From Candidatus Shapirobacteria bacterium (lineage in GTDB: Bacteria; Patescibacteriota; Microgenomatia; UBA12405): 64,000 bases of DNA. The stretch spans positions 15,098-79,097 of the forward strand of contig JAUYJS010000008.1 in assembly GCA_030698565.1 (NCBI GenBank), given 5' to 3'. A program made the translations under genes and the position numbers. How positions within the stretch are numbered: the first letter of the stretch is position 1; every line of letters begins with the position of its first letter. The notes below the pieces were generated by a model that searched no databases, was not told the DNA's origin, and saw nothing but the letters and a program-made list of their open reading frames with translations. Positions 951 through 48,943 of this stretch are shown here, in pieces.

Positions 951-1076
951 CTCGGTTCTGGCCACGACCTATCTTCAAGATCCCTTGCGGAAAGACTATT
1001 GTCAGTGCTAAAACGTTTCACTTCTCTGTTCGGAATGGGAAGAGGTGGTTCCATCTCGCTCCAGTGACCAGAACTG
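951..1076 (-). rRNA. rrf: 5S ribosomal RNA
   Basis: The reverse complement contains the hallmark CCCATTCCGAACAGAGAAGTGAAAC motif. Helix I ends pair (ttctggtca / tggccagaa). Length is about 125 nt. Confidence 0.85.
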
Positions 1077-1209
1077 AAAAACTAAAACAAAGTAATTATA
1101 AACTAATTTCTTGGCCTCTAAATAGAGTTGCCTAATCTGGCTCCTAAACCACAATAGAATTGTAGTCTAAGAGCCATACTATATAAAAAAGATTTCTTCG
1201 ATCTTTCCA

Positions 1210-4180
<2,971 letters not shown>

Positions 4181-4359
4181 TAGTTTTGGCAACTCAATTC
4201 AGTTGCCAAGAAATTGAAAGTCTTATAATTACTTTTTTCGATTCAATAAATTGTTAATGTGCAGTATTCAGTTTAAGGAAATAAATTTCTTTATTTCCTT
4301 ATTTCTAAATATCTCTTAAATGGATTTATCCACCGAAGTTCTGCTTTGCAGAACGTAGG

Positions 4360-4433
4360 TGGACCCAAGGAGAGTCGAACTCCTGATCTCCTCGTTGCAA
4401 ACGAGGCGCTTTAACCAACTGAGCTATGGGCCC
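4360..4433 (-). tRNA. tRNA-Ala (anticodon TGC)
   Basis: Reverse complement is gggcccatagctcagttggttaaagcgcctcgtttgcaacgaggagatcaggagttcgactctccttgggtcca. It folds as a cloverleaf with a 7-bp acceptor stem, anticodon loop tt-TGC-aa and TTCGA T-loop. CCA is not encoded. Confidence 0.9.
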
Positions 4434-5644: not shown

Positions 5645-6595
5645 TTAGTATATCACAGCTTTTTCCACTAAAATCTCCACAACTGCTTTAGCTGTATTTA
5701 TTTTAGTTGCTTTTTCAAAACCCTGAAATTGGCACTGTCTGTTTACTTCTAAAACATAGCTATTATCAAACTCATCTTTCATTATATCCACCCCACAATA
5801 ATCCAACCCACACACCTGTGCCACTTTTTCCGCCAATTCGCTATCTTCTTTGGAAATTTCCCAGCTTTCTACCTCTCCGCCCAAAGAAAAATTACTCCTA
5901 AATTCATCGCCAACTGCCGATCGTTTCATCGCTCCCAATGTTTTTCCACCCAGAACAATAACTCTCATATCCCATCTGGTCGACAAGCATTTCTGCCACA
6001 GATACATTCCCAAGCTCTTTTCATCAATTTTCTTAAGCACCGTTTTTAATTCTTTTTCGTTATTAATTTTTCGAACACTTTTTCCCTGAAACCCTCTTTC
6101 ATGTTTACAAATAATTGGATATTCCCAACCAAAAAAAGTATTTCTCCCATTTTCAAGGGGAGATGTCCGTAGGACAGAGGGGTTTAGAACTTGTTCTCTT
6201 GTATAAAAGATTTTGGTCGGTACCACCGAAATATCATTCACCACAAATACCCCATGTTGAGAAATTTTTCCCATTCTCGGCCAACTCAAATAACTCACTT
6301 CATTAGCACAAAAAATTTTATCTTTCAAAAGTTTTAGCAGTAAATTTCTACCTTCAATATATTTACCCGATTCAGTTCCAGCCACTCGGCACCACACCGC
6401 CAAAGTATTTTCTTCATTAATTTCTTTACCACATGCCAAAACTTTAGTTTTTCCATTTTCCACTTCAAAACTTAATTCTTTATACAACACTCGACTAACC
6501 TCCACTCCCAATTTTCCTGCCTCTTCTACTAATCTATTTACCTCATAGCTACTTTGCTGTGCTGACATGGTCAACACTAAAATTTTTTTATTCAT
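5645..6595 (-). CDS. RimK-family ATP-grasp amino-acid ligase (alpha-L-glutamate-ligase-like)
   Basis: 316 aa. The C-terminal half matches the RimK ATP-grasp core (RVIVLGGKTLGAMKRSAVGDEFRSNFSLGGEVE..VCGLDYCGVDIM...VLEVN). It contains one in-frame repeat-derived insert, LNPSVLRTSPLENGRNT. Confidence 0.7.
   Translation of the reverse strand: MNKKILVLTMSAQQSSYEVNRLVEEAGKLGVEVSRVLYKELSFEVENGKTKVLACGKEINEENTLAVWCRVAGTESGKYIEGRNLLLKLLKDKIFCANEVSYLSWPRMGKISQHGVFVVNDISVVPTKIFYTREQVLNPSVLRTSPLENGRNTFFGWEYPIICKHERGFQGKSVRKINNEKELKTVLKKIDEKSLGMYLWQKCLSTRWDMRVIVLGGKTLGAMKRSAVGDEFRSNFSLGGEVESWEISKEDSELAEKVAQVCGLDYCGVDIMKDEFDNSYVLEVNRQCQFQGFEKATKINTAKAVVEILVEKAVIY
6139..6188. repeat. Palindromic repeat copy A (diverged), in frame inside the CDS 5645-6595
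   Basis: tatttctcccattttcaaggggagatgtccgtaggacagaggggttta. Same architecture as copies B-D: a ctcccc/ggggag hairpin plus a gagggg tail. Confidence 0.8.
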
Positions 6596-6609
6596 ATGTT
6601 TATATGTAC

Positions 6610-6629
6610 GGGCGATTCATGAATCGCCC
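6610..6629. terminator. Intergenic GC palindrome gggcgattcatgaatcgccc (family copy 1)
   Basis: Perfect 9-bp arms (gggcgattc/gaatcgccc) with a 2-nt loop, lying between two minus-strand ATP-grasp genes. Confidence 0.5.
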
Positions 6630-6636
6630 CTACGAA

Positions 6637-7650
6637 TTATTTTTTCAATCCAACTAAAAATTTAACTATTTCCGCAGGTACATCAATTCCCGTTGCCTTC
6701 ATAAAACCTTTAAACTGAGGTCCTTTATTAACTTCCCAAATTACAGGTTTATTTATATCATAATTTCTAAAAGCCACATCGACTCCGGCCACCCACAACC
6801 CACACACCTCCGCCGCTTTAACCGCTAAATCTTCAATTTCTTTGGGTAATTTAGCTACTTCCACCCTTCCTCCCGCACTATAATTATTTAAAAAATGATT
6901 CTTAGGAGCCGAACGTTTAATCACCCCAAGTACCTTTTTTCCCAAAACCAACACCCGGTAGTCCCCATCATTTTCAATATATTCTTGCAACATATATCTT
7001 CGGCCTTCTTCTGTTTCTGACTTTCTCAAATCCATCACCAATTTTTCTAATTCAGCCAAATTATTAGCCTTAAAAACCCTCGTTCCCCTATCCCCACCAC
7101 TACCCTTGAGAATTACTGGAAAAGTAAAAAAATATTTCTCCCCTTTATCAAGGGGAGATGTCGCAGCAGCGACAGAGGGGTTTTTCTGTTCTGTCTCTTT
7201 CATAAATTCATACAAATACCACAAACTACCATAAACAGTTTTAGGCACATCAATTCCCGCTCGCTTCATCACCAACATTTGGTAAGCCTTACACGTATCC
7301 GAAGGCCTACCTTTCAAAACCAACGGATCCACCACAACTGGCGTTTTATATTTCTCCCCTTTATCAAGGGGAGATGTCGCAGCAGCGACAGAGGGGTTTT
7401 TCACCGAATCTAAAATCAAATTTACTTCTTCCCAGTGTTTTCCTGTTGTTCTAAAAAACAAAACATCATAATCTTTAATATTTTTTTTTCTTCTTAATTT
7501 TACTTCCCCAAAATCAGTATCAAAACAAACTTCATTATAAGACACCAAATCCAAAACCACCCCCAGTTTCTTCGCCGCTCTTTTTATCATCATCAAATGC
7601 TGACTAACTTTTCCTCCAAAAAATAGGGCAATTCTTGTTTTTTTATTCAT
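6637..7650 (-). CDS. RimK-family ATP-grasp ligase carrying two identical in-frame repeat insertions
   Basis: 337 aa. The RimK-like C-terminus is YRVLVLGKKVLGVIKRSAPKNHFLNNYSAGGRVE...GVDVAF...IWEVNKGPQFKGF. The peptide KNPSVAAATSPLDKGEKY occurs twice and is encoded by two identical ~54-nt DNA repeats. Confidence 0.7.
   Translation of the reverse strand: MNKKTRIALFFGGKVSQHLMMIKRAAKKLGVVLDLVSYNEVCFDTDFGEVKLRRKKNIKDYDVLFFRTTGKHWEEVNLILDSVKNPSVAAATSPLDKGEKYKTPVVVDPLVLKGRPSDTCKAYQMLVMKRAGIDVPKTVYGSLWYLYEFMKETEQKNPSVAAATSPLDKGEKYFFTFPVILKGSGGDRGTRVFKANNLAELEKLVMDLRKSETEEGRRYMLQEYIENDGDYRVLVLGKKVLGVIKRSAPKNHFLNNYSAGGRVEVAKLPKEIEDLAVKAAEVCGLWVAGVDVAFRNYDINKPVIWEVNKGPQFKGFMKATGIDVPAEIVKFLVGLKK
7133..7186. 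repeat. Palindromic repeat copy B, in frame inside the CDS 6637-7650
   Basis: tatttctcccctttatcaaggggagatgtcgcagcagcgacagaggggttttt, identical to copy C. Confidence 0.85.
7347..7402. repeat. Palindromic repeat copy C, in frame inside the CDS 6637-7650
   Basis: Identical to copy B. On the coding strand it encodes KNPSVAAATSPLDKGEKY. Confidence 0.85.
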
Positions 7651-7665
7651 ATTTTTATTTATAAT

Positions 7666-7716
7666 TATTTCTCCCCTTTTTAAGGGGAGATACGGCGAAT
7701 GCCGAGAGGGGTTTAG
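7666..7716. repeat. Palindromic repeat copy D, intergenic, overlapping the stop codon of 7713-9038
   Basis: attatttctccccttttttaaggggagatacggcgaatgccgagaggggtttagc. It may double as a terminator hairpin. Confidence 0.75.
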
Positions 7717-9038
7717 CTTTTTGCCGAAATTAAAAACCCTCCCAAATCTTTTCTACCCAATAAAAATTTGGTTCTCAATTTATGTCGATCAGCCACATTG
7801 ACTGCGGTCACAATTTTCCGACCGTTTAACCAAAAAGTCAAACCCACCACTGGCCGATCATTATTTTTACCTAAAGCTGATTTATAATGCCGATAATACA
7901 ATATTTTATTTTCATCCAAAAGACCTAGTTCTTGAGCTAAAACTCTATCTATTGAACTCCTATAAGCTCCGGTATCGATCTTAGCCGTCACCTCTTTGAA
8001 ATTTTTCTTGCCTTTTCCAGTTTTAATTTTAATATTTTCCAAAGGACCTACTAACTTAACCTTTTCTTTTTCCTCAACTTTATCAGAGAAACTTTCACCA
8101 AATAAATATTTAGCCAAAGTAATGGCGTGTTCTGTACTTCTAACTTCTATTTCTTCCAGTTTATCCATCCTCGCTTTTAACCCCGCCTTATTGCATATTT
8201 GAATCGATAAACCCGGCCTAGCATTAACTTCCAAAACCATTGGCCCTTTTTCTTTATCCAACACCACATCCACACCCAAAAACCCCAAACCCGGAATAGC
8301 CTTTTGACAATTTACTGCTGTTTCCAAAATCTCTTTCCAAAAAGGAATTTTTATACCATTAACTTTTCTCATTTTCTTTTTGCCATAATCATAAATTCGT
8401 CTTATCGGTTCTCCCTTACCTTCAATTCCAAAAGTGGTAATTCCCGAAGCCAGATCAATCCCCAAACCCACCGCCCCCTGTTGTAAATTCGCCTTACCAC
8501 CACTTTTTTCTGTTGGAATTCTAAACATGGCCATTACCGGCACTTTGTTGTAGACAATTACCCGAATATCCGGCGTCCCGACCTTAGTAATCGCCAAAAA
8601 CATCGGATGAATTCTAATTCTCTCTTCCACCAAAACCGGATCCGATGCTCCGTGCATACTATAACGACCTGCCAAAACATCTTGACAATGAAGTTTAATA
8701 TCTTGAGTAGTTATAATCTGGCCATTCATTTTCTGCCATTCACCAGCCCATTTGGCTCTGCGTCGAATAATTATAATTCCCTCACCACCGTATCCTGATT
8801 CCGGTTTGATCACAAAATTTCCTTCCAAATCTTCCCAGCGAAAGTTATCTAATTCTTCAATCGTCTTAAATCTTTTGATTAGCAAAGGCACACCAATATT
8901 TGCTTTGGCCAATATCTTCTTAGTTCTATATTTACTATCCGCTACCATCCGATCAGCCGTTGTATTTTTTCTCAAATAAACCTTATTCCTTTCGTTTTTA
9001 GTTAAAAACTGACGATAAGGTTTCAAAAAGGCAAACAT
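7713..9038 (-). CDS. ATP-grasp domain protein fused to a C-terminal retropepsin-like (Zn_protease / RimK-associated aspartic peptidase) domain
   Basis: 441 aa. The N-terminal ATP-grasp signature is FVIKPESGYGGEGIIII ... MVLEVNARPGLS. The C-terminal IDTGAYRSSID carries the D-T-G-A retropepsin catalytic motif. Confidence 0.6.
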   Translation of the reverse strand: MFAFLKPYRQFLTKNERNKVYLRKNTTADRMVADSKYRTKKILAKANIGVPLLIKRFKTIEELDNFRWEDLEGNFVIKPESGYGGEGIIIIRRRAKWAGEWQKMNGQIITTQDIKLHCQDVLAGRYSMHGASDPVLVEERIRIHPMFLAITKVGTPDIRVIVYNKVPVMAMFRIPTEKSGGKANLQQGAVGLGIDLASGITTFGIEGKGEPIRRIYDYGKKKMRKVNGIKIPFWKEILETAVNCQKAIPGLGFLGVDVVLDKEKGPMVLEVNARPGLSIQICNKAGLKARMDKLEEIEVRSTEHAITLAKYLFGESFSDKVEEKEKVKLVGPLENIKIKTGKGKKNFKEVTAKIDTGAYRSSIDRVLAQELGLLDENKILYYRHYKSALGKNNDRPVVGLTFWLNGRKIVTAVNVADRHKLRTKFLLGRKDLGGFLISAKS

Positions 9039-9040
9039 AT

Positions 9041-9925
9041 CTACTTCTTTTTGTTCGAATCTCTAATCGCACTTTTAAACCTATTAAACTCAGCCAATCT
9101 TATCCCAGTATAATTCCCCACCACTAAATTGATAATTAATACCATTAATACCATTAATTCAGGATTGTATAAAATAATATTTTGAATCCAATTAAAGTTC
9201 ATAGTAATTGACCCAAAAATAGCCAATATTAACGTTCCCACAGTTAAGCTTCTGGCTTCCTTTCGACTTTTTACCAATTGAGTCCGCACAAATTCTTCCG
9301 CCAAAAGCACCATAAACAGAATTGGGAAAATAGAAATCTGACTCAAATCGACAAGTTTAAAAAACGAAGTAATCAGCATTAATCCAAATGTCCCCAAAGA
9401 AATAAACAAAAGATTGATTGATCTGGCTGGCCAAAAATGAATTCTTAATCGTCTTAAAATTAGATTAGACAATAACGATACTATTAATATCATGGCGAAC
9501 AAAAGCAATCCACCAAAAATACCCGTCGCCAAAAAGGTAATCGCAATCATCGTCGGCATAAAAGTCCCATAACCAGTCAAACCAAAAATATAGTGCAACA
9601 CCGACACTAAAGTAGCAATCAACGGCAACATCAATAGTAGAACTATAGTGTTTGTCGCCACTCCCCGAGTCATTGCCCACTTAATTAATATTCTAATAGT
9701 ATTAAATCCATTCCATTTACCTACATCATAACGCACCTGTTTAATTTCTGGTTCGGTAATATTGGCTGAAACTTCAGCCACCACAGTCGGCACTATTGTA
9801 GGCGACACACTAGTTACTGTTGGAGTAACAGATGTTTTTCCGGTAACTGCCAATATTTGGCTTCCACAAAACAAACTCAATAGTATTAATACTGAAATTA
9901 GGAAAATGGGGGTAATTTTTCTCAT
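9041..9925 (-). CDS. Polytopic (about 7-TM) membrane protein with signal peptide; candidate 7TM partner of the ATP-grasp/retropepsin system
   Basis: 294 aa. N-terminal signal peptide, then a Thr/Val/Pro-rich segment and about 7 hydrophobic helices. Its stop is 2 nt from the start of the ATP-grasp-retropepsin gene, so they are probably co-transcribed. Confidence 0.45.
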   Translation of the reverse strand: MRKITPIFLISVLILLSLFCGSQILAVTGKTSVTPTVTSVSPTIVPTVVAEVSANITEPEIKQVRYDVGKWNGFNTIRILIKWAMTRGVATNTIVLLLMLPLIATLVSVLHYIFGLTGYGTFMPTMIAITFLATGIFGGLLLFAMILIVSLLSNLILRRLRIHFWPARSINLLFISLGTFGLMLITSFFKLVDLSQISIFPILFMVLLAEEFVRTQLVKSRKEARSLTVGTLILAIFGSITMNFNWIQNIILYNPELMVLMVLIINLVVGNYTGIRLAEFNRFKSAIRDSNKKK

Positions 9926-10010: not shown

Positions 10011-10018
10011 TGTATAAT
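10011..10018 (+). promoter_or_regulatory. Extended -10 promoter element TGTATAAT, 10 nt upstream of the ATG at 10029
   Basis: tttagTGTATAATttccatatctATG. No Shine-Dalgarno is visible, suggesting a leaderless or near-leaderless transcript. Confidence 0.35.
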
Positions 10019-10028
10019 TTCCATATCT

Positions 10029-10358
10029 ATGACACAGTTACTCGCCGTAAACATAGGGGAGATCCCTCTGAGAACCGGTCAAAGTCTCGCAACTACTTAT
10101 CCAACAGTGTCTATTCTTTTCTCAATTATTATCAAAAATGCCCTTACTATAGTTGGTCTTATTTTTCTTGGCCTTTTGATTTACGGCGGTCTTTCTTATA
10201 TAATCGGTGCAGGTAGTGATGATGCCAAAAAAGCCGAACAAGCTAAGGGAATTATAACTAACGCTTTAATCGGATTTGCGATAGTCTTTCTAAGCTACTT
10301 TATAATCCAAATAATACAAATTATTACCGGAATTGACATCCTTAATCCAACTCTTTAA
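10029..10358 (+). CDS. Small two-helix membrane protein, VirB2/TrbC-like T4SS pilin candidate (paralog 1 of 6)
   Basis: 109 aa. Hydrophobic helix, then a charged loop (GAGSDDAKKAEQAKGIITNALIGFAIVF), then a second helix. Motif G(G/A)xxYIxSxGDxxKxxxAxxxITNAxIG is shared with the 5 downstream paralogs. Confidence 0.5.
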   Translation: MTQLLAVNIGEIPLRTGQSLATTYPTVSILFSIIIKNALTIVGLIFLGLLIYGGLSYIIGAGSDDAKKAEQAKGIITNALIGFAIVFLSYFIIQIIQIITGIDILNPTL

Positions 10359-10701
10359 ACCAAAATTAATATTAGCCGCTGACCCATTATTTGGTTCAGT
10401 TTCTAATCCAACCAAATACAATAGTAAGAACGGAGAAGGTCTCTTTCTTTTTTTAAGTAATATTTTCAAATTAATAGCCGTTATTGGCGGTATTTTTTTA
10501 ATTTTCCAAATAATTATGGCTGGTTTTGCCTATATTTCAGCCAGTGGTGATCCCAAAAAAACCGAAGCCGCTTGGACCAAAATTTGGCAAAGCATCCTCG
10601 GCTTACTCATTATTGCTTCAGCCTTTATTATTGCCGGTGTTGTTGAACGACTAACTGGCATCAATATTATTAATCCTGTCATTTATGGTCCAACTAATTA
10701 A
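10333..10701 (+). CDS. VirB2/TrbC-like pilin candidate (paralog 2)
   Basis: 122 aa with AGFAYISASGDPKKTEAAWTKIWQSILGLLIIASAFII. The start is uncertain because the ORF overlaps the previous one by 26 nt. Confidence 0.45.
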   Translation: MTSLIQLFKPKLILAADPLFGSVSNPTKYNSKNGEGLFLFLSNIFKLIAVIGGIFLIFQIIMAGFAYISASGDPKKTEAAWTKIWQSILGLLIIASAFIIAGVVERLTGINIINPVIYGPTN

Positions 10702-11050
10702 ACCGATTTTAGCTATAGGTAGTACTTCTTTTTCCTTAACCGGTCCAGGTATTGATCCTGGCACCGACCCCACTACAAAACTTGAAACTGTTATAAGCAA
10801 CACCATTGCTGTTTTAACCATTGTCGCTGTTATATTTTTCGTTTTACAAATTATTTTTGCCGGTTACGCTTTTATTTCTTCCCGTGGTGATGAAAAAAAA
10901 TTGGAAATTGCCAAGGACAGATTAACCAACAATGTCTTAGGCTTATTTATAGTTGTAGTTGCCGTTGGCTTAGGCGCCTTAATTGCCAAATTAGTCGGTA
11001 TACCCAATATTCTCGATCTAAATCAAACATTTACCAAAATGGGATTATAA
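10685..11050 (+). CDS. VirB2/TrbC-like pilin candidate (paralog 3)
   Basis: 121 aa with AGYAFISSRGDEKKLEIAKDRLTNNVLGLFIVVVAV. Confidence 0.45.
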   Translation: MVQLIKPILAIGSTSFSLTGPGIDPGTDPTTKLETVISNTIAVLTIVAVIFFVLQIIFAGYAFISSRGDEKKLEIAKDRLTNNVLGLFIVVVAVGLGALIAKLVGIPNILDLNQTFTKMGL

Positions 11051-11056
11051 AAAAAT

Positions 11057-11383
11057 ATGATTACCAATCCTCTTCTAAAAAACAACGACACTATAGTCAC
11101 CAACCCAAATGCCTATGTTAGCAACGTTATTGGTGCCGTTATTTCTATCTTTTTTATCGTGGGCATCATTTACTTCACCTGGAATGTCGTTTTTGCTGGT
11201 TACCATATGATCAACTCCCAAGGAGAGAGCAAAAAAGTCGAAGAAGCCAGAAGTCACTTAACCAATGCTGTTATTGGTATTTTTGTCGTCTTTTCTATTT
11301 TTGCTCTTCTCAAATTAGTTATTACCATTTTAGGCTTAAATATCGATACTAATAATCTCTTAATTTCACTACCATCCCTTTAA
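11057..11383 (+). CDS. VirB2/TrbC-like pilin candidate (paralog 4)
   Basis: 108 aa with AGYHMINSQGESKKVEEARSHLTNAVIGIFVVFSIF. Confidence 0.45.
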   Translation: MITNPLLKNNDTIVTNPNAYVSNVIGAVISIFFIVGIIYFTWNVVFAGYHMINSQGESKKVEEARSHLTNAVIGIFVVFSIFALLKLVITILGLNIDTNNLLISLPSL

Positions 11384-11446
11384 TATTTAAATAAATCCTG
11401 ATACAATAAATTATTATTTACAAATTAATATAAAAACCCAACAAAA

Positions 11447-11836
11447 ATGATCAAAAAAATAGCTAACCGCCTAAAAATGTTCTCTTTAATTCCTTCTGTT
11501 TACGCTGCAGGCGAGACAATTCAAATAGCTCCAACAGATACGGTTTGGGATAAGATTGTCAAAAACCTGACCGTCGGTAGTATAATTGGCGGCTTAATTA
11601 ATTTAGTGTTAATTGTTGCTTCGTTAATTTTCTTCTTTATCTTGGTCATTGGCGGTATCAAATGGATTGTTTCCAATGGCGATGAAAAAAGTGTCGAAAG
11701 TGCCCGATCTCAAATAACCAATGCCCTCATCGGTTTAGCTATCGTTTTTGCTGCCTGGGCAATCCTAAAGTTAATCGGTATACTTTTTGGACTTGATCTT
11801 ACTTCTGGATTCACCGTCCCTACATTTACAAAATAA
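11447..11836 (+). CDS. VirB2/TrbC-like pilin candidate (paralog 5)
   Basis: 129 aa with GGIKWIVSNGDEKSVESARSQITNALIGLAIVFAAWAILKLI. Confidence 0.45.
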   Translation: MIKKIANRLKMFSLIPSVYAAGETIQIAPTDTVWDKIVKNLTVGSIIGGLINLVLIVASLIFFFILVIGGIKWIVSNGDEKSVESARSQITNALIGLAIVFAAWAILKLIGILFGLDLTSGFTVPTFTK

Positions 11837-11860
11837 TTTCTGAAAAGTTAATTAATCAAT

Positions 11861-11884
11861 CCCCGCTGCGGCGGGGTTTTTGTT
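11861..11884 (+). terminator. Rho-independent terminator after paralog 5
   Basis: ccccgctgcggcgggg followed by tttttgtttt. Confidence 0.7.
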
Positions 11885-11889
11885 TTAAT

Positions 11890-11988
11890 ACGTCATTGCG
11901 ATGAGGCTTTGCGACGTGGCAATCTCATTAATAATTTAGACTAACTCACTCCCAAATAAGATTGTCACGCTTCGCTCGCAATGACGTG
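11890..11988. repeat. About 100-nt intergenic imperfect palindrome (12-bp perfect terminal inverted repeat acgtcattgcga / tcgcaatgacgt)
   Basis: Inverted repeats at 11890-11901 and 11977-11988, with nested partial complementarity (gcgacgtggcaatc / gattgtcacgc). It lies between pilin paralogs 5 and 6 and is followed by a second cggggtttttgttt tract. Confidence 0.5.
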
Positions 11989-12011
11989 CTTAGTACGGGG
12001 TTTTTGTTTAT

Positions 12012-12019
12012 TGTATAAT
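12012..12019 (+). promoter_or_regulatory. Extended -10 TGTATAAT, 9 nt upstream of the ATG at 12028
   Basis: ttatTGTATAATcaacacatATG. Confidence 0.35.
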
Positions 12020-12027
12020 CAACACAT

Positions 12028-12444
12028 ATGTTCAAACTCTTTTCTTATTTTTTACCATTAATTATTTTTGTTTCACTGATCTTTCCTTCAATTAATCCAG
12101 TCTTTGCTCAAAAAGAATGGAAACAAATTAATTCCAAATGTATTAGCTCTGTTTCTGGCGCCGAAGACGTCGCCACTATCCAAGGCTTCGAATGTATTTT
12201 CTACAATATTCTTCAAGTCATAGTTTATATTGCCGGAATTGCTTTCCTTTTTATGTTTATTACTGGCGGTTATCAATATCTTTTTTCAGCCAATGACCCA
12301 AAAAAAACCGCCCAAGCCTCTTCCACTCTCACCATGGCTATTTTGGGAGTTATCGGTATAATTGCCTCTTGGTTTATCCTCCGACTAATCTCTAATTTTA
12401 CTGGTATTACCAATTTAACCAACTTCGTCATTCCTGGCCCATAA
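12028..12444 (+). CDS. VirB2/TrbC-like pilin candidate (paralog 6, with signal peptide)
   Basis: 138 aa with GGYQYLFSANDPKKTAQASSTLTMAILGVIGIIASWFILRLI. Confidence 0.45.
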   Translation: MFKLFSYFLPLIIFVSLIFPSINPVFAQKEWKQINSKCISSVSGAEDVATIQGFECIFYNILQVIVYIAGIAFLFMFITGGYQYLFSANDPKKTAQASSTLTMAILGVIGIIASWFILRLISNFTGITNLTNFVIPGP

Positions 12445-12476
12445 CCTGCCACTAATTTACCTAGTCGTTATATAAT

Positions 12477-12485
12477 CTGTATAAT
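12477..12485 (+). promoter_or_regulatory. Extended -10 cTGTATAAT, 6 nt upstream of the ATG at 12492 (leaderless candidate)
   Basis: tataatcTGTATAATttcactATG. Confidence 0.3.
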
Positions 12486-12491
12486 TTCACT

Positions 12492-13334
12492 ATGCGTTAT
12501 TATCGGATTATTCTTTCTATATCAATTTTTGTCTTGTTTGTATTTTTATTTTCTGTTCCAATCAAAACCCTAGCCATTGAAATTACTACCGATCTTCCAA
12601 CTCCTGAAGTCCAAACAACCCCAGTTTCCACAGGCTCTACCACTGTGCCCACAACCCCAGCTCCGACAAAAATAAGTGAATTTATGAGTATCTGGGGGTC
12701 ATTCATCAACTTTTTTAAGTCATTTACTAAGTCCTATGCCGTTCAACCAAACAATCCTCCATCTTTAACTAATTTTGGTGACATCAACAATTCCGAAAAC
12801 ACCTATGATTCTGTCACTCGATCTACTGATTATAGTGATCAACTTAGTCAAAAAAACCAATACATCAGTGATGTAATTAATGGCATATACGAAGACAAAA
12901 ATATGTCTTCGTGTCCCAGTGATTCCGATATTACTATCAAAAAAGTAGCTTTTTATTTAATTAAAGTCAAAAACACTTCTCTAAATGTCGAATCTCAAAA
13001 AGAAACAGATTTTTTAAATAGTCCCGAATTTATTAACTTTAGTATCGATCCTTCTTTATATTCTTGTTACGACCAAATTTACGATCAATTTCCTTCCATT
13101 CCTCAAGGTGGTGAAAATAACGCCGAAAACGCCGCTGGTAGTCAGCAATTAAATAATTCTTTGCGTAGAATTATGCCCGACCGAGAAGTTGGTACTGCAG
13201 TTGGAAACAATAATGATAAAAACAAATATACCAACCAAAATAATGAACTACAGAAAGATGCTGGTAAATTTATGTCTCCCGAAAATTTTACTGTAAAAGA
13301 TTTTACGAATTTACGTCCTGCCGGTTGGCAATAA
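12492..13334 (+). CDS. Secreted protein, Thr/Pro-rich N-terminal region, function unknown (T4SS-locus associated)
   Basis: 280 aa. Signal peptide MRYYRIILSISIFVLFVFLFSVPIKTLA. No recognizable catalytic motifs. Confidence 0.4.
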   Translation: MRYYRIILSISIFVLFVFLFSVPIKTLAIEITTDLPTPEVQTTPVSTGSTTVPTTPAPTKISEFMSIWGSFINFFKSFTKSYAVQPNNPPSLTNFGDINNSENTYDSVTRSTDYSDQLSQKNQYISDVINGIYEDKNMSSCPSDSDITIKKVAFYLIKVKNTSLNVESQKETDFLNSPEFINFSIDPSLYSCYDQIYDQFPSIPQGGENNAENAAGSQQLNNSLRRIMPDREVGTAVGNNNDKNKYTNQNNELQKDAGKFMSPENFTVKDFTNLRPAGWQ

Positions 13335-13394
13335 TGCAATTTAAACCAATAGATTGTTTTTTTAATTACTGCTAAAATTGTAAAAGTTATACAT

Positions 13395-14966
13395 ATGTTT
13401 ATCAAGCAATTTCTCCACCATCTCAACCACCGCGACACCAAGATTTTAACCAAACCAAAAATTCCTCGACTTTCAAAATTCTGTTTAGTTTTTTTAGTTT
13501 TAATTTCCAGTATATATTTAGTCAAAGTAATTAAAGCCCAAAATATAATCGAGCAAGTTCAAAAAGCTCAAACCAAAGGCAACAACGCCGAATCTTGGCA
13601 TTTGAATGCACTTGAAACTACTGCCACCACATTAGCTACATCTTTATCTGGTAAGTTAGAATTCAATCCAGACGGATCTTTTAAATCTAGTTATTTACCT
13701 GGCGGAGCTATCGGAATGACCACAAATTTTATTGCCACTCTTTACAACCCTCCTGCTTCCGGCATTGAATATATTGCCCAAGTAAAAAATCAATTTCTGG
13801 GCGGCAATCCAGTCTACGCCCAAGGAGCCGGTTTCGCTGGTTTACAACCGATTCTTCCACTTTGGCGAGGATTTAGAAATGTTGTTTACGTTCTTTCAGC
13901 TTTAGTATTTGTCATTATCGGCTTAATGATTATGTTTCGAGTTAAAGTCAGTCCTCAAGCAGTTATCAATATTCAAAATGCCATTCCTCAAATAATCATT
14001 ACTCTAATATTAGTTACTTTTTCTTACGCTATCGCTGGTTTATTAATAGATATATCCACATTTTTTCAAACCATGGTTATGGCCCTTCTTTTTCAAAGTT
14101 ATGGTCAAAACGGTTTACTTTATCACACAGGTGCAATAAATTATAATTTTTCTCAACTTGCAAATCCTGGCTTCTGGAACGTTTTCAGTTTAATGAATAA
14201 AGCAGCACCAGCCGGGTTTCTTCTTTTGATGTCCGAGGTAATTAGCTTATTGATGGGACTAATTATCGGTATTACTCCAGCGGCTATCGGTGGTCCAGCT
14301 GTCGGTTTAGTTACTGTCGGTATCGGATTAAAATTTGGCTTTTTAGGAGGAATAATTTTATTCTTAATTATTGGAATCATAATTTTTATTTGGATACTCA
14401 AGTTTTTCTTCGGACTTATTAAAGTTTATGTTAGTCTTATTATTCGAATAATTTTAGCTCCTCTAGAAATTGGCATGGGAGCTTTTCCCAATTCAAAAAT
14501 TGGATTTTCTAGCTGGTTAATTAGTGTCTTGGCCGATCTTTCTGTCTTTCCTATCTCGATACTTTTTTTAGTATTTGCTAATATTCTTATTGAAACTTCG
14601 TCTCAAGGTTTATGGCGCCCCAGCCTTCTTGCTTTCACCGCACCTTTTGACTTAATTGGTATAGCTATAGGTTTAGCTACCCTCATGATGTTATCTCAAT
14701 TACCTGAATTAATTCCTCAGTTTGTTTTCCAGCTTAAACCATCACCTCTTGGTAATGCCGTTGGCGAAAGCTGGAAAAATATGCCATTTAGAGGATTAGC
14801 CTCCACTATTGGTGGTGAAGTCGGATACGCAACTGGCGGAGCCATAACTGAAGCAATTGGTAACAGATTAGAAAGAAGAGCCGGAGAAACAATTGACCGA
14901 CCAGCTAAAAAAAGACCACCTCTGGCCAATGAAAAAAGAAGACCTAGACGGCTTTTTGGATGGTAG
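13395..14966 (+). CDS. Polytopic membrane protein, VirB6/TrbL-like candidate
   Basis: 523 aa. Signal/TM, then a ~130-aa extracytoplasmic domain, then 6 or more TM helices, then a basic C-terminal tail (KKRPPLANEKRRPRRLFGW). It follows the pilin array directly. Confidence 0.4.
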   Translation: MFIKQFLHHLNHRDTKILTKPKIPRLSKFCLVFLVLISSIYLVKVIKAQNIIEQVQKAQTKGNNAESWHLNALETTATTLATSLSGKLEFNPDGSFKSSYLPGGAIGMTTNFIATLYNPPASGIEYIAQVKNQFLGGNPVYAQGAGFAGLQPILPLWRGFRNVVYVLSALVFVIIGLMIMFRVKVSPQAVINIQNAIPQIIITLILVTFSYAIAGLLIDISTFFQTMVMALLFQSYGQNGLLYHTGAINYNFSQLANPGFWNVFSLMNKAAPAGFLLLMSEVISLLMGLIIGITPAAIGGPAVGLVTVGIGLKFGFLGGIILFLIIGIIIFIWILKFFFGLIKVYVSLIIRIILAPLEIGMGAFPNSKIGFSSWLISVLADLSVFPISILFLVFANILIETSSQGLWRPSLLAFTAPFDLIGIAIGLATLMMLSQLPELIPQFVFQLKPSPLGNAVGESWKNMPFRGLASTIGGEVGYATGGAITEAIGNRLERRAGETIDRPAKKRPPLANEKRRPRRLFGW

Positions 14967-15000: not shown

Positions 15001-17280
15001 TTATCTTCGTCTACTAAACATTCTTTTAACAAAAGATCCTGAATCTTTGTAAACAAAATACTCTCCCAAATTCAAGCTCTCCACTATCCAATTCCACTGT
15101 TCTTCAGTCATAAAATGATCAGCGCTCGGTCCTAAAATCTTTTTTAAATGCCTATATTCCGGCTCATCATATTCATCCAAATTTATCTTATATTTAGTTG
15201 CTAAATATCGTACATTTTTAAAATCATCTTTAATCCACTCAGTCCTCATATCATTATTACTGGATTGTAAGACTCCTGCTAACCAATCAACAAAAAACGA
15301 CTGATTTTCCAGCTCATTACCTTCAACTGTGCATTTCATAAAAGCATCATACGTTCCTTCAAATAAAGGCACTCTCATATCGCCCGGTTTAACGGCATCT
15401 TTAGATTGTAATCCCACCTTAGCCTTCTTTACCTTTTGATTAACAATAGCTGTAAAATACGCCCAGAAATCTTTCTTCCCTTCTAGATTAGATAAACCTT
15501 TTAATATATCCTCGGTTTTAATCATTTTATCCGGATCTTTTTCTTTACAAAAATATCTAATCCAACCAGGAGTCAAAGACTTAATCAAATGTCGGGTTAC
15601 CTTCGGTCCAGACCCTGGTTTACCTTTACGTGACTCATCCTCTCGGAATTTACCAAAATGAATCATTTCCGAAAAATCATCTCCATCAATAAATTGGGCA
15701 TTAAAAACCGATTTTTCCGAGGAAGCAACTATAAATTTTTCGGCGATTTGCATTGCTTTTCTCGCCTTTGTATCACTACCTAACTGAGCTATCATGTATT
15801 CCCTAACCTGAGTCTGAGAAGAACTTCTCGCCCCTAATTCTTCATGTTCATCATATGTAAAACCCCAATATTTTTTCCCATAAAAAGGATCTTCAGTTGC
15901 TGGTTTGGCTCTTTTTTGTTCAATGATTTTCGGATCAACTCCGGCCTTAGCCATCATCTCCAGATAATTAAAATTAGCTTCTTCTACTAAATCCCACGAT
16001 CTTCCCAAATCAACACCCTGACCATTAAATAGACGATCCCCATCTACTTTCCAATCCTTAAACAAAAAGTACATCATATCTCTAGTAATAAATCTTTTTC
16101 TTCTACCAATATCACCAATGGCCTGCACTACTCCGCCACCTTTTTCTCCATAACCGCCACTAGCCATATCCATAAAATATTCAGTGTCATGGACCGCCAA
16201 TCTGGTTCTGATCATTCTATCAATAAACTTATACTGTTCCTTTTCTTTTTCAGTTTTACCCCTACCCTTAATCTCGTCTAATATGGCATTCAAATAGTTA
16301 GTTGATTCTCCGGAAATTTGTAAGTCGTTACTTTCGTATCCCGACCCTTCAATGAAATCCAAAACATCATCAGTAAACCTAAATAATATTTCTGGATTGT
16401 CATAGGGTATCTCTTTAGACCTACTCCCAATAATATCCCGAAAAAGTTTAAGTTTATCTGGTAACGCCTTTTCATTTTCAGCAACCCTTTTATCCCTTTT
16501 TGCCTTTGCTTGTCGCTGTCCTTCGGTCATTTCAATTTCTGGAGTTTCTTCATTATCATTTACATCCTCTTTATCAGGTTTAATTCTAGTAGGCACACTA
16601 GTAACTGGCTTCTTTTCTTCCGATCTTTCTCTTTCTTGAGCCAAATAAGCCATTAATGTCTTCCATTCTAATTCATAAGGTGTTTCTCTCAACCTTCGAT
16701 TTAATTGAGATGTTTCTTGTAAAAGCTGAACCGTCCTTTCGTTATAAGATTTTCTACCACTAGACATATTTAAATCAAAAATTTCTCTTAAATCTCTCAT
16801 CTCTTGAGCAATTGGAACTAATTGCTCACAAGAAATCATTCTTTTTTGAACACGTCCTTCTAATCCCTTTAATGCATCGGGTAGATGTCGATCAAGCCCA
16901 CCCAAAACAGAATCATCTTGGACATCAGCAATTCCTGATTCTATAACCGCTAAAGCCGCAGCATCTGCCAATTTATTCAAATCAGCTTCATCAATTTTTT
17001 CCCTACCCTCTGCTCTATTAGCGTTTTTTAATGAATTGTTGTAGCCCTCTACAGTATTCTCTCCATGACCCAGTCCTCCTATTATCCTTTGTACATTTGT
17101 TTCTCGATCTGGTACATTTGAGTCAAAAATATTAGCGGCTAAAAACTGATCTTTTATTTGCTGAACTTGCCTTTCTTTCATTAACATCACTTCCACATCG
17201 TGTACATCTTTATGTACAATTACAGCTTCATAAGACGAACTTTTCTCACTCATATCCCAAATTATATCATTTCTAATCAA
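15001..17280 (-). CDS. Large hypothetical soluble protein (759 aa)
   Basis: Long intact ORF with charged coiled-coil-like central region. I recognise no conserved catalytic motif. Confidence 0.5.
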   Translation of the reverse strand: MIRNDIIWDMSEKSSSYEAVIVHKDVHDVEVMLMKERQVQQIKDQFLAANIFDSNVPDRETNVQRIIGGLGHGENTVEGYNNSLKNANRAEGREKIDEADLNKLADAAALAVIESGIADVQDDSVLGGLDRHLPDALKGLEGRVQKRMISCEQLVPIAQEMRDLREIFDLNMSSGRKSYNERTVQLLQETSQLNRRLRETPYELEWKTLMAYLAQERERSEEKKPVTSVPTRIKPDKEDVNDNEETPEIEMTEGQRQAKAKRDKRVAENEKALPDKLKLFRDIIGSRSKEIPYDNPEILFRFTDDVLDFIEGSGYESNDLQISGESTNYLNAILDEIKGRGKTEKEKEQYKFIDRMIRTRLAVHDTEYFMDMASGGYGEKGGGVVQAIGDIGRRKRFITRDMMYFLFKDWKVDGDRLFNGQGVDLGRSWDLVEEANFNYLEMMAKAGVDPKIIEQKRAKPATEDPFYGKKYWGFTYDEHEELGARSSSQTQVREYMIAQLGSDTKARKAMQIAEKFIVASSEKSVFNAQFIDGDDFSEMIHFGKFREDESRKGKPGSGPKVTRHLIKSLTPGWIRYFCKEKDPDKMIKTEDILKGLSNLEGKKDFWAYFTAIVNQKVKKAKVGLQSKDAVKPGDMRVPLFEGTYDAFMKCTVEGNELENQSFFVDWLAGVLQSSNNDMRTEWIKDDFKNVRYLATKYKINLDEYDEPEYRHLKKILGPSADHFMTEEQWNWIVESLNLGEYFVYKDSGSFVKRMFSRRR

Positions 17281-29333: not shown

Positions 29334-30680
29334 ATGGATATAGATCGGATTTGGAAAAACACTCAAGAAGAACTCAAGGTTGTTCTGGCTCCAGCCGTTT
29401 TTCAAACTTTTGTCGCCAAAACTCAGCTAATTAGCCTCCAAAATAATATTGCCACTATTGCTTGCCCCAATTCTTATTTAGTCGATATTAATCACAAACG
29501 CTACTATCAATTATTTAAGGGCGCTTTGGATAATCAAACCAAAAGTGATAATCAACTAAATTTTATTATTCAGGAAATTCCTAAAATCGATTTAGAAAAT
29601 TCTAATTCAGCCCCGCTTTTTACTTATGCTTCTCCCAAAAAAACTTTTTCCGATTCCAATTTACATCCCAAATATACCTTTGAAAATTTAATTGTGGGCA
29701 ATAGTAACAATTTTGCTTATGCTGCCGCCCAGGGTATTGTCAAAAACCCTGGTCTAACTTACAACCCATTTTTCATTTGGGGTGGAGTAGGTGTGGGTAA
29801 AACCCATTTAATGCAGGCTGTTGGCCATGAACTTCTCAAGAGCAACCCTGATTTCAAAGTCAAATATTTTCCCGCCGAAACCTTTGCCAATGAATTAATC
29901 GGTGCTTTAAAATCCAAAAACATGAACCAATTTAAAAATAAGTACCGCAGTTTAGACTGTATTTTAGTTGATGATATTCAATTTATTGCCGGCAAAGAGT
30001 ATATCCAAGAGGAATTTTTTCACACTTTCAACGCCCTTCATATGGCTGGTAAACAAGTTATTTTAACCTCCGATCGCAAACCTAGTGAGATCAAAGATTT
30101 AAAAGACCGCTTGGTTTCTCGTTTTATGGGTGGTTTAACTGTTGATATTCAAATGCCAGATTATGAAATGCGAGTCGCTATTATTAAGCAAAAAATGGAA
30201 GAACGGGGGAGTAGAATCACCAATGAAGCCATAAGTTATTTAGCTGAAAATGTGGTTTCCAATATTCGCGACATCGAAGGTCGGCTTCAAGAATTGACTA
30301 TCCAAGCTATGGCCAAAAATATTCCTGAAATAAATTTAGAATTCATTCAGTTTATTATCAATCCTAACTCCAATACTTTTTTTGAATCTGCCTCTGCAAA
30401 AGTTACTCCTCGTCACTTAATTTCCGTTTGCGCCAAATATTTTAATATTAAAACAGGGGATTTGTGTGGCAAAAGTCGAAAAAAAGAATTGGTTTCCGCC
30501 CGTCATATCACAGCCTACTTACTTTTAACCGAAATTGAGTTACCCCTAGAAGAAGTCGGTCATCTTTTGGGTGGCCGCGATCATACCAGTATTATGCACG
30601 CTCGTGACAAAGTTCAAACAGAGTTCTCCACTAATCCACAAATTCGACAACTTATCAACCAAATTAAAGGCACCTTCTAA
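29334..30680 (+). CDS. dnaA: Chromosomal replication initiator protein DnaA
   Basis: 448 aa with AAA+ Walker A (GGVGVGKTHLMQAVG), sensor motifs, and a C-terminal DNA-binding domain. Confidence 0.95.
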   Translation: MDIDRIWKNTQEELKVVLAPAVFQTFVAKTQLISLQNNIATIACPNSYLVDINHKRYYQLFKGALDNQTKSDNQLNFIIQEIPKIDLENSNSAPLFTYASPKKTFSDSNLHPKYTFENLIVGNSNNFAYAAAQGIVKNPGLTYNPFFIWGGVGVGKTHLMQAVGHELLKSNPDFKVKYFPAETFANELIGALKSKNMNQFKNKYRSLDCILVDDIQFIAGKEYIQEEFFHTFNALHMAGKQVILTSDRKPSEIKDLKDRLVSRFMGGLTVDIQMPDYEMRVAIIKQKMEERGSRITNEAISYLAENVVSNIRDIEGRLQELTIQAMAKNIPEINLEFIQFIINPNSNTFFESASAKVTPRHLISVCAKYFNIKTGDLCGKSRKKELVSARHITAYLLLTEIELPLEEVGHLLGGRDHTSIMHARDKVQTEFSTNPQIRQLINQIKGTF

Positions 30681-32120: not shown

Positions 32121-32510
32121 TTATTCCCATTCAATCAAATGGCTTTGAGGATCCACCTCGTTTTGTATTAGCCACTTTGTAATTTCGCCTTCAATTGTCT
32201 CTTTATTTCCTGATTTAATTTTCACGGTTAAAGTTAGGGGTTTTTGATATTGTTGAATAGTAAATCCTTTTCCTTGGTAGGGTAATATTCGCCACAACGG
32301 GTATTTCTCTTCATTAGTTAGTGCAATTGTGGGAACCAAAGTCGGAGTCGCAATTATTGGTTCATTTGTTGGTGTCGGTAAAATTACTTGATTTTGATTA
32401 ATTTCTTCCACCTTATTACCATAAATTACCTTAATACTCGCCATTACTACCACAATCAAGCTCAATGCCACAATTAATTGGTACTTTTTTAAAAATTGAT
32501 TTAATTTCAT
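32121..32510 (-). CDS. Small exported/membrane-anchored protein, unknown (T4SS-like locus)
   Basis: 129 aa with an N-terminal TM/signal. Confidence 0.35.
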   Translation of the reverse strand: MKLNQFLKKYQLIVALSLIVVVMASIKVIYGNKVEEINQNQVILPTPTNEPIIATPTLVPTIALTNEEKYPLWRILPYQGKGFTIQQYQKPLTLTVKIKSGNKETIEGEITKWLIQNEVDPQSHLIEWE

Positions 32511-32520
32511 TTAACAAATT

Positions 32521-36071: not shown

Positions 36072-36105
36072 TAAATAAAATTATATCAATTGCCCCATCT
36101 TTCTC

Positions 36106-38478: not shown

Positions 38479-38479
38479 T

Positions 38480-39184
38480 TTATTTTTTAGTACTAACCAT
38501 TGGGGCGGTGTAATTTAATGTCTGAATTTTTTGATTTATCGAATTTTCTTCATTATATATTTTATAAAACAATTCTATTAATTCTTTAGTTGCTAGTTGC
38601 CTTATTTCCAAACCCAACCTAGCAAATAGTCTCATCAAATGATCTCGTTTAGGTTCCAAATTAGCCTTTGCTTTTTCTAAAATATAATTTTTATCATAAG
38701 GTAATACTTGAGACTTTTTTTTCATCGGCAGTAAACTAGCCAAAATTTGTTTATTAGCCGATTTTATACCCAACTCTAAAACTGAAAATCTAACTAAAAC
38801 ATAAAATGATTTAGATAGTACTTCATTTTTTTTAACCGTCTCTTCTATAAATTTTCTATAAAGCTGAATTCTCTGTTTCAATAGCGGGTTAATTTGTTTT
38901 TCTTCAGCCGTCTTCAAATTATTTAAATAAGCGCTTACATCTTTTGTATTTGATCTGATTAGAATTTGAATTGGAAAATTAAGTGAATTTAAAATTCCAC
39001 CATATGCAAAAACCAAAGACGACTGTTCTTTTTCCGACAAAAGGTCGAAATTTACCGATGATAATTGCATTACCATAGCGCACGACCCATCTTTTAAAAT
39101 CACCACATTATCCACCACATCTTCAATCTGAAGATGCTCTTGAGTAGTTCCTTTAATGGCGATTTTTAATGGGTCACTTGGCAT
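38480..39184 (-). CDS. Hypothetical soluble protein encoded immediately upstream of VirB4 (1-nt gap)
   Basis: 234 aa, no TM segments or recognised motifs. Tight spacing implies co-translation with the ATPase. Confidence 0.35.
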   Translation of the reverse strand: MPSDPLKIAIKGTTQEHLQIEDVVDNVVILKDGSCAMVMQLSSVNFDLLSEKEQSSLVFAYGGILNSLNFPIQILIRSNTKDVSAYLNNLKTAEEKQINPLLKQRIQLYRKFIEETVKKNEVLSKSFYVLVRFSVLELGIKSANKQILASLLPMKKKSQVLPYDKNYILEKAKANLEPKRDHLMRLFARLGLEIRQLATKELIELFYKIYNEENSINQKIQTLNYTAPMVSTKK

Positions 39185-39206
39185 ACCTTTTATTATTAAT
39201 CATAAC

Positions 39207-47350: not shown

Positions 47351-47381
47351 CATTTTTTTTAACTCTACTACACTTTGTAGT

Positions 47382-48893: not shown

Positions 48894-48943
48894 ATTTATT
48901 GAATTTATTAATTCTTAATTATTAATTTTTAATTAAACTAATT

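Follow-up and report, generated by a model that had tools for sequence, protein, structure and literature searches.

The stretch of DNA analyzed here, 64,000 nt long and called the window throughout, is chromosomal DNA of Candidatus Shapirobacteria (Microgenomatia) and carries at positions 10029-14966 (locus A) six consecutive genes for small pilin-like proteins, p1 to p6, followed by genes for a 280-amino-acid (aa) protein and a 523-aa membrane protein. Our comparisons indicate that the six genes are ancient paralogs, each conserved in its own right and all kept in one order, and not interchangeable alleles. We consider it probable that locus A is the pilin and channel module of a chromosomal Patescibacteria-type type IV secretion system (T4SS) and that this module builds a heteromeric conduit. 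The Patescibacteria-type T4SS derives from the monoderm MPF-FATA class. The six genes are listed below together with their whole-protein hidden Markov model (HMM) scores against PF18895 (Pfam T4SS_pilin), which has a gathering cutoff of 26.6 bits.

10029-10358, + strand: p1, 109 aa; two transmembrane (TM) helices, no classical signal peptide; 34.4 bits
10333-10701, + strand: p2, 122 aa from a TTG, start uncertain; tail ILnP.IyGP; 38.2 bits
10685-11050, + strand: p3, 121 aa; 30.7 bits (and 26.5 bits against TrbC, PF04956)
11057-11383, + strand: p4, 108 aa; N-terminal motif I.NP.l.n and tail itwPtL, both conserved; 28.4 bits
11447-11836, + strand: p5, 129 aa; predicted classical signal peptide ending ..SVYA before AGE; 37.1 bits
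12028-12444, + strand: p6, 138 aa; predicted signal peptide ending ..VFA before QKE; tail nvT.F.IPg; 39.3 bits

For comparison we used the family of the 523-aa protein to fetch 80 loci from species-representative genomes and located the pilin arrays in these loci with an HMM made from the six window paralogs. In every locus with complete upstream sequence the array lies directly upstream of the 523-aa homolog. Exactly six pilin genes in the same order were observed in 55 genomes including the window, and in all 55 the array is linked to the gene for the 523-aa homolog. As these genomes were retrieved through that homolog, the rule of six genes holds for its clade and not for Patescibacteria generally. 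Two loci, L052 (2161-5847) and L059 (3170-6353), contain eight genes in the order 1-2-3-4-5-5-5-6, and this triplication of p5 in two genomes is the only change in copy number that we found. Shorter arrays were broken by contig ends, with their 3' members still in order. Each position could be recognized on its own: in 92-100% of the comparisons between genomes (99% for p1) a pilin has its best match at its own array position, and when position-specific HMMs were built without the six most divergent genomes, 35 of the 36 pilins of those genomes were placed correctly. The window paralogs are 46-58% identical to their best matches at the same position but only about 30% identical to each other, and the core of p5, with 69% identity across genomes, is the most conserved of the six. 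The preliminary description of this DNA had called the C-termini hypervariable. The tails do differ between paralogs, but they are conserved by position, with a mean pairwise identity, for region boundaries taken from alignments, of 28-53% in the 55 genomes and with an identity of 86-100% to the closest relative (see below). Between the paralogs we observed no DNA repeats longer than about 30 nt, and those found are only 64-72% identical; variation by cassettes or gene conversion was rejected on this ground. A variable amplification of the Bartonella Trw or Anaplasma type was not seen either, as the number is fixed at six apart from the p5 triplication, orthology follows position and inter-copy DNA repeats are lacking. 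Taken together, the fixed number and order, the positional orthology, the conserved tails and the lack of inter-copy repeats point to ancient non-redundant paralogs and not to a set of alleles.

The assignment to the pilin family is supported by several lines of sequence evidence. All six proteins exceed the PF18895 cutoff (28.4-39.3 bits, independent E-values from 7e-10 to 2e-6), a similarity that is far beyond chance. PF18895 was also matched by all 43 p3 orthologs that were scanned, and the orthologs in L081 carry a precomputed PF18895 annotation in a public database; L081, a 26.8-kb Logan contig with the same architecture as the window, is the nearest relative at hand. Against TrbC/VirB2 (PF04956) p3 reaches 26.5 bits with an E-value of 7e-6, just under the cutoff of 27.9, and 13 of the 43 p3 orthologs match at E<=0.01, while the other five paralogs gave no match to this family; p3 seems to be the paralog nearest to canonical TrbC/VirB2. 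Sub-threshold matches to the model of the 'pilin-like conjugal transfer protein' of Mycoplasma integrative and conjugative elements were obtained from all six. By hydropathy every paralog has two strong hydrophobic segments flanking a charged loop, GDxKK with an invariant Lys, which fits the two helices and positive loop of the VirB2 class. A core of about 77 residues can be aligned with the consensus GGYxYIxSxGDxKKxExAxSxITNAxIGL, and G54, K67, A72, G82 and G101 are invariant in the six paralogs. Overall the paralogs are 28-33% identical to one another. Split by region, this identity drops from 30% in the core to 15% in the C-tail and 11% in the N-region. The signal peptides of p5 and p6, read from the sequence, are kept in the orthologs; the mature N-terminal extension of p6 holds two conserved Cys, and the tail of p5 has the consensus iPtf. 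The basic features given in the preliminary description were thus recovered: six consecutive open reading frames (ORFs) on the + strand of 108-138 aa with a helix-loop-helix layout, the common core motif, the exact C-terminal strings (…NPTL, …YGPTN, …FTKMGL, …ISLPSL, …PTFTK, …VIPGP), the close packing of the genes (p1 and p2 overlap by 26 nt and p2 and p3 by 17 nt, with 6 nt between p3 and p4), the 280-aa protein with its N-terminal hydrophobic segment and the 523-aa polytopic membrane protein behind the array, and the VirB2/TrbC likeness itself.

To describe variation between close strains we compared the window with L081, so that the following values refer to one genome pair. The flanking ATP-grasp, 7TM and FtsH genes are 96-99% identical at the aa level, with a synonymous divergence (dS) of 0.05-0.13. 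Within the array p1 is 90% and p5 98% identical, and the core of p4 is 100% identical (dS 0.03). The cores of p2, p3 and p6 reach 94, 92 and 96%, and their N-regions 23, 55 and 55%. The slot protein, as we call the 280-aa protein, shows 78% identity (dS 0.53) and the 523-aa protein 56% (dS 1.16), the divergence of the latter being focused in residues 226-325, 401-425 and 451-523. Behind it lies a further gene:

15001-17280, - strand: orf759, a soluble, highly charged, hypervariable protein encoded convergently with the gene for the 523-aa protein

The two copies of orf759 are essentially unrelated (28% identity over 96 aa). On the DNA level the identity is 92% up to 11885 and 82% over 11996-14077; the region from about 14.08 to 17.27 kb is mostly unalignable, and 95-97% is observed from 17271 onward. 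The pooled ratio of nonsynonymous to synonymous divergence (dN/dS) is 0.42 for the pilin N-regions and 0.09 for the cores and never exceeds 1. This gives no support to positive selection as the cause of the strain divergence. The divergent segments also have a raised dS, which points instead to an import of divergent alleles, the reading that we favor. The strain variation sits in the N-regions of p2, p3 and p6, in the slot protein, in loops of the 523-aa protein and in orf759. An ORF of 640-1100 aa on the - strand occupies the position of orf759 in nearly all related genomes, and 47 of the 56 proteins from this position fall into one BLAST component; among 54 members of the family no Pfam domain was found. 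Despite flanks that are 96-99% identical to L081, the window copy resembles copies from more distant genomes (37-39% identity) and not that of L081, which suggests allelic replacement. The protein could be an effector or a specificity factor, and its place as a part of the T4SS is uncertain.

Next, we looked at the signals for expression and at an inserted element in locus A:

10011-10018, + strand: TGTATAAT, extended -10-like box 10 nt before the ATG of p1; consensus match only
11861-11886, + strand: terminator-like hairpin (CCCCGC-TGCG-GCGGGG) with T-run directly after p5, closing the p1-p5 unit
11886-11995, no strand assigned: 110-nt palindromic element, a long hairpin (fold z = -5.4) inserted just past the p5 terminator
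12012-12019, + strand: TGTATAAT box 8 nt before the ATG of p6
12478-12485: TGTATAAT box preceding the ATG of the slot protein gene

An equivalent hairpin with T-run was found within 110 nt past position 5 in 47 of the 55 genomes and past the other positions in only 1-3 of 55. Genes 1-4 overlap or abut, and the median gaps among genomes are 52 nt between p4 and p5 and 66 nt between p5 and p6. A single transcript, as had been deduced from the gene packing in the preliminary description, is therefore unsupported, and -10-like boxes are present before p1, p6 and the slot protein gene. The genes past the terminator, encoding p6, the slot protein and the 523-aa protein, may form a second expression unit. 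In the window the boxes sit 7-10 nt ahead of the three ATGs; a TATAAT-like box 4-14 nt ahead of the called p1 start was found in 34 of the 55 genomes and a similar box at p6 in 33, in 12 of these with an upstream TG. No Shine-Dalgarno sequence is visible at any of the eight locus A genes. Together with the short distance between boxes and ATGs, this suggests leaderless or near-leaderless mRNAs in this organism. The 110-nt element is flanked by a perfect 14-nt direct repeat, CGGGGTTTTTGTTT, at 11872-11885 and 11996-12009. It is missing from L081, occurs once in the window and has no Rfam match; short perfect matches to it were found in the p4-p5 gap of another of the loci, L014 (4220-4258). It looks like a small mobile element resembling a miniature inverted-repeat transposable element and is not part of the T4SS.

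The two larger genes of locus A are the following:

12492-13334, + strand: slot protein, 280 aa; signal peptide or anchor, Pro/Thr-rich linker and a domain of about 200 aa without known relative
13395-14966, + strand: VirB6-like protein, a 523-aa polytopic membrane protein

Both proteins of the window are 100% identical to hypothetical proteins of a Candidatus Shapirobacteria metagenome-assembled genome, encoded there on a 353.7-kb contig. Between the array and the gene for the 523-aa protein there is always one + strand ORF of 240-925 aa with a hydrophobic N-terminus, in the position that we call the slot. All but one of 48 slot proteins belong to one similarity component, the common part being an N-terminal module of about 250 aa, and the window protein is the bare N-terminal module of this small, fast-evolving family. 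In longer members the module is extended by SpoIID (10 cases), VanY (4), SLT (3) or GH5 (2) domains; the window copy is without a peptidoglycan-hydrolase domain. The hydrolase domains of the other members suggest that the family is an accessory for breaching the wall. In an exhaustive search of 1.84 billion representatives we found 31 relatives of the family, and a word-indexed search for homologs of the 280-aa protein returned just 3-4, even with a profile of 19 sequences. A VirB5 (pilus-tip) or VirB8 identity of the slot protein was considered, but we observed no fold similarity to solved structures of VirB5/TraC or VirB8.

For the 523-aa protein we found at least 654 homologs, and none of these carries a T4SS-related Pfam annotation. 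The protein itself has no Pfam match at E<=1 and no NCBIfam match at E<=0.1, and a 50-sequence profile of the family searched against PDB sequences gave no VirB6 and nothing significant. Sequence profiles from these three sources thus do not place it with VirB6, TrbL or PrgH. The fold gives a different indication. An AlphaFold2 model has a mean predicted local distance difference test (pLDDT) score of 73.5, with values above 90 in the TM core. With this model Foldseek ranked TrwI chains in places 1-4 and DotA seventh, with a best E-value of 8.7e-3 and TM-scores of 0.38-0.47, and two independent methods gave as best structural matches VirB6/TrwI of R388 and DotA (PDB 7o3v, 8rt9, 8rtd and 9ngy). 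We therefore call the protein VirB6-like by fold, with moderate confidence and on the strength of a predicted model. VirB6 homologs are described as 'scarce' in Microgenomatia in the passages of PMC12102498, which makes this family a plausible candidate for the missing VirB6 component of the T4SS in this class.

The ATPase part of the system lies in a second cluster (locus B, 32121-40142), on the far side of dnaA-dnaN and oriC:

29334-30680: dnaA
30992-32116: dnaN
32121-32510, - strand: bitopic protein, 129 aa, at the end of locus B
32521-33528, - strand: bitopic protein, 335 aa; N-terminal TM segment, no Pfam match
33513-36071, - strand: M23 protein, 852 aa; C-terminal M23 peptidase (PF01551, E 1.8e-16)
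36106-38478, - strand: VirB4-like ATPase, 790 aa; TraG P-loop (PF19044, E 7e-31), AAA_10 and DUF87
38480-39184, - strand: TrsD/TraD-like protein resembling the N-terminal domain of VirB4, 234 aa; NCBIfam TrsD E 3e-7, below the family cutoff
39207-40142, - strand: PrgI/VirB3-like protein, 311 aa; PF12666 25.1 bits against a cutoff of 27; two TM segments

The 234-aa TrsD-like protein also gave weak matches to the N-terminal regions of VirB4 family models, and the 852-aa M23 protein is a candidate cell-wall hydrolase analogous to VirB1. Locus B is 17-25 kb from locus A and the VirB4-like ATPase about 21 kb from it. A split T4SS-like apparatus with VirB4 some 20 kb away had been proposed at the outset, and the two loci flanking dnaA and dnaN agree with it. 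Two observations link the halves. In the divergent genome L079, the VirB6-like gene is followed directly, on its own strand, by the PrgI-TrsD-VirB4 genes. In six other genomes, among them L067 (7566-7970), L020 (7540-7944), L024 (7492-7956) and L072 (7504-7959), homologs of the 129-aa gene stand immediately upstream of the VirB6-like gene, and the window protein and its L067 homolog are 36% identical over their full length. As this gene belongs to locus B here and to locus A elsewhere, it has moved between the T4SS halves. Among the scanned ORFs of the 64-kb window we found no relaxase and no type IV coupling protein (T4CP) domain. The window therefore shows the features of a Patescibacteria-type T4SS with a VirB2 array: at least two tandem pilins of low identity, VirB4, TrsD and PrgI near dnaA, and no relaxase or T4CP in the 64 kb.

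From these data we propose how locus A might act. The pilin-like proteins would enter the membrane as helical hairpins whose charged GDxKK loop faces the cytoplasm, would be pulled from the membrane by VirB4, and would polymerize on an oligomeric platform of the VirB6-like protein into a short heteromeric tube or pilus across the envelope, toward a host cell. In this scheme p5 would be the bulk subunit and the other five would be specialized minor, initiator or tip subunits. The assignment of p5 is likely because it is the most conserved paralog, has a signal peptide, is followed by the conserved terminator and is the only one found amplified. Slot proteins, with their hydrolase domains in other genomes, would serve as accessories for breaching the wall. 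Since neither a relaxase nor a coupling protein was found among the scanned window ORFs, classical DNA conjugation seems unlikely, and protein export or an exchange of molecules with the host is more likely. A more specific form of the proposal gives each part its own role: the six VirB2 paralogs would form an obligate base, a shaft (p5) and a tip or adaptor (p6, with its extension disulfide-bonded) on the VirB6-like platform, with the slot protein (carrying SpoIID, VanY, SLT or GH5 domains elsewhere) as a head that breaches the host wall, while recombination between strains would exchange orf759, the VirB6-like loops and the exposed pilin N-regions as determinants of host specificity or of an arms race. 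We know of no described precedent for a T4SS pilus built from a fixed set of six different pilins. As a whole we regard this version as possible but unlikely.

Several points weigh against the reading of locus A as a module for a heteromeric conduit. To our knowledge no filament has yet been seen in any Patescibacterium. No hydrophobic leader or recognizable cleavable signal peptide was found in p1-p4. Profiles made from the six paralogs and from the 43 p3 orthologs gave no significant match to PDB sequences. Polymerization of the six proteins is a proposal, the roles of p5 and of the other paralogs are deduced only from conservation and gene context, and the VirB6 link of the 523-aa protein is modest. 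Finally, the fixed six-gene set was sampled through the 523-aa homolog and applies at the level of that clade.

The other explanations have to be weighed against the same data. The small proteins might be unrelated two-TM peptides, for example holins or bacteriocin-immunity proteins, whose likeness to pilins is compositional. It is true that two-TM proteins readily match many families weakly, and many Pfam matches here have E-values of 0.002-0.8. However, all six exceed the PF18895 cutoff, the L081 orthologs were independently annotated with this family, and the array is linked to the VirB6-like gene in 55 of 55 genomes and to VirB4 in L079. A holin or bacteriocin-immunity identity, which the preliminary description had named as an outcome that would refute its pilin reading, gave no significant match (best Phage_holin_3_6, E 0.31, with 11.6 bits where the cutoff is 28.4) and was rejected; we regard a compositional origin of the likeness as extremely improbable. 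The same description had taken the six genes for alternative pilin alleles in tandem, with multiplicity giving antigenic or host-range variation of a surface filament; variation of this kind is proposed for the Bartonella TrwL and Anaplasma VirB2 paralogs. The low identity of the paralogs at their ends (11% and 15%, against 30% in the core) fits this idea, as do the N-regions of p2, p3 and p6, which are just 23-55% identical to L081, and the analogy is also offered for Patescibacteria arrays in passages of PMC12102498. Yet 55 genomes have the same number of genes in the same order, every position forms a separate ortholog group with conserved C-tails, neither DNA-level repeats nor signs of gene conversion were observed between copies, the copy number is altered only by the p5 triplication in two genomes, and dN/dS is below 1 throughout. 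The strain variation, moreover, is found between orthologs and is accompanied by raised dS, a sign of imported alleles and not of switching between paralogs. Variation through alternative alleles is thus largely refuted for this clade and quite improbable as an explanation of the six genes.

Two further alternatives accept the proteins as T4SS components and differ in what the apparatus would do or look like. It might be a ComB-like DNA-uptake T4SS whose pilins capture nucleic acids from the host or the environment. The lack of a relaxase or coupling protein among the scanned window ORFs is compatible with this, and uptake is among the roles speculated on in passages of PMC11665869, but we observed no uptake-specific feature in the sequence. 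In addition, the T4SS of Southlakia epibionticum is essential while its comEC-dependent competence is dispensable according to passages of PMC10633639 and PMC12857230, which would still allow for another uptake route; on balance we think uptake improbable. Alternatively, the six proteins may be membrane-embedded translocon subunits that form a heteromeric channel ring or a very short envelope conduit, with no extended extracellular pilus. Their nearest relatives are small two-TM proteins of monoderm and Mycoplasma T4SSs, p1-p4 are without signal peptides, the strict keeping of six different paralogs would suit a complex with a fixed stoichiometry, and no pilus has been reported for Patescibacteria T4SSs, with passages of PMC12857230 speaking only of a 'possibility'. 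On the other hand, the proteins belong to the PF18895 pilin family, a similar Gram-positive protein, PrgF, is reported to line a pilus-like lumen (in passages of bioRxiv 10.64898/2025.12.18.695078), and amplification of p5 only suits a bulk polymer better than a ring of fixed stoichiometry. A channel ring without a pilus is hence an alternative with a limited chance of being right, and a pilin and channel module that builds a heteromeric conduit remains the explanation that we prefer.

Some observations concern the surroundings of the two loci. The 23S and 5S rRNA genes, dnaA and dnaN all lie within the window. The rRNA genes and one tRNA occupy 956-4433 on the - strand, with a protein-coding gene after the tRNA, and they were the only features returned by an Rfam scan, which gave no match inside locus A. 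A 16S rRNA gene was not found across the 64 kb, so that the rRNA genes appear to be unlinked. Upstream of the pilin array and divergent from it, at 5645-9925 on the - strand, three ATP-grasp genes and a gene for a 7TM_transglut membrane protein form a cluster. Two of the ATP-grasp genes are RimK-like, and the third encodes an ATPgrasp_ST protein with a C-terminal Zn-protease-like domain. Of 54 related genomes, 50 have this cluster in the same position, and the window and L081 share 99% identity in it. Beyond locus B, the region 46982-57693 has a raised G+C content (0.38-0.40, against about 0.33-0.36 nearby). It contains genes for two BlaI/Penicillinase_R-type repressors, an M48 peptidase, two P-type ATPases with HMA domains, a DsbD_2/HMA/cupredoxin fusion protein and a DsbA-like thioredoxin, and could be a metal-resistance island.

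VirB2-like arrays of Patescibacteria have already been published (Wang 2023, PMC10633639; Quiñonero-Coronel 2025, PMC12102498), so that the kind is known and the window adds a further member. Passages of PMC12102498 report 441 VirB2 arrays of 2-11 genes in 383 assemblies with a mean identity of about 25%; arrays of this kind abound in Microgenomatia and Saccharimonadia, dnaA is close to the T4SS, a relaxase is absent, and the authors draw the analogy to Bartonella and Anaplasma. For S. epibionticum ML1 the pilin series is described as essential in passages of PMC10633639, and six divergent VirB2-like pilins are mentioned in those of a 2025 review (PMC12857230). The function of the Patescibacteria T4SS is called unknown in the corresponding part of PMC11665869. 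PrgF of Gram-positive bacteria is presented, in passages of bioRxiv 10.64898/2025.12.18.695078, as a VirB2-like protein encoded beside virB6 and modeled as a pilus on a VirB6 pentamer. In the passages retrieved from these papers by term search we did not find the fixed ordered hexad with its positional orthology, the conserved p5 terminator, the slot family with its modular build, the VirB6 candidate recognized by fold or the strain-level divergence island. These additions matter because the one genetically tractable Patescibacterium cannot live as an epibiont without its T4SS, and because profile searches had found almost no VirB6 in the class for which the window now offers a candidate at the level of fold.

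In comparison with known systems, the likeness to type IV pili and the pseudopili of type II secretion systems is one of analogy only: several distinct conserved pilin paralogs occur together and one is likely the bulk subunit, but fold and assembly machinery are unrelated, and tip and initiator roles are a proposal here. The Bartonella Trw system, with its tandem trwL and trwJ genes, and the VirB2 families of Anaplasma and other Rickettsiales share with locus A multiple VirB2 paralogs in a non-conjugative, host-associated T4SS. Their amplification is lineage-specific and variable in copy number and sequence, whereas number and order are fixed here and inter-copy DNA repeats are lacking. The 523-aa protein resembles VirB6/TrwI of R388 and DotA of the Legionella Dot/Icm system in being polytopic and helical, and its gene adjoins pilin genes; it differs from TrwI and DotA in showing no detectable sequence similarity, and it is about twice the size of TrwI. 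In PrgF/PrgH of pCF10, as described in passages of ter Beek et al. (2025), a VirB2-like protein that is small and has two TM segments is likewise encoded beside a virB6-like gene in a monoderm T4SS. Systems of the pCF10 type also have VirB4, a PrgI/VirB3-like protein and a cell-wall hydrolase. They are, however, conjugative with one functional pilin, a relaxase and a T4CP according to the same passages, while the present system is chromosomal with six paralogs and no DNA-processing genes. The closest likeness is to the Patescibacteria arrays as given in passages of PMC12102498 and PMC10633639, which share tandem PF18895 genes of about 25-30% mutual identity near dnaA, a monoderm-type VirB4 with TrsD and PrgI, and no relaxase or coupling protein; such arrays are described as especially frequent in Microgenomatia. 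With S. epibionticum the window has six divergent pilins in common (passages of PMC12857230), but there the pilins lie inside the T4SS cluster, and here the pilin and VirB6 module is separated from virB4 by about 21 kb and the origin. In contrast to the 'scarce' VirB6 of Microgenomatia in the published passages, a candidate was found here, by fold only. The published arrays vary between 2 and 11 genes, for which host adaptation is suggested in those passages; the present one is a set of six in fixed order, with orthology by position. That a second class, Microgenomatia, conserves each of six pilins in a fixed order argues against the idea of a variable array for host adaptation and favors a heteromeric machine whose composition is defined. 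Determinants of host specificity are more likely to lie in the slot protein with its swappable wall-hydrolase domains, in the VirB6-like loops and in orf759.

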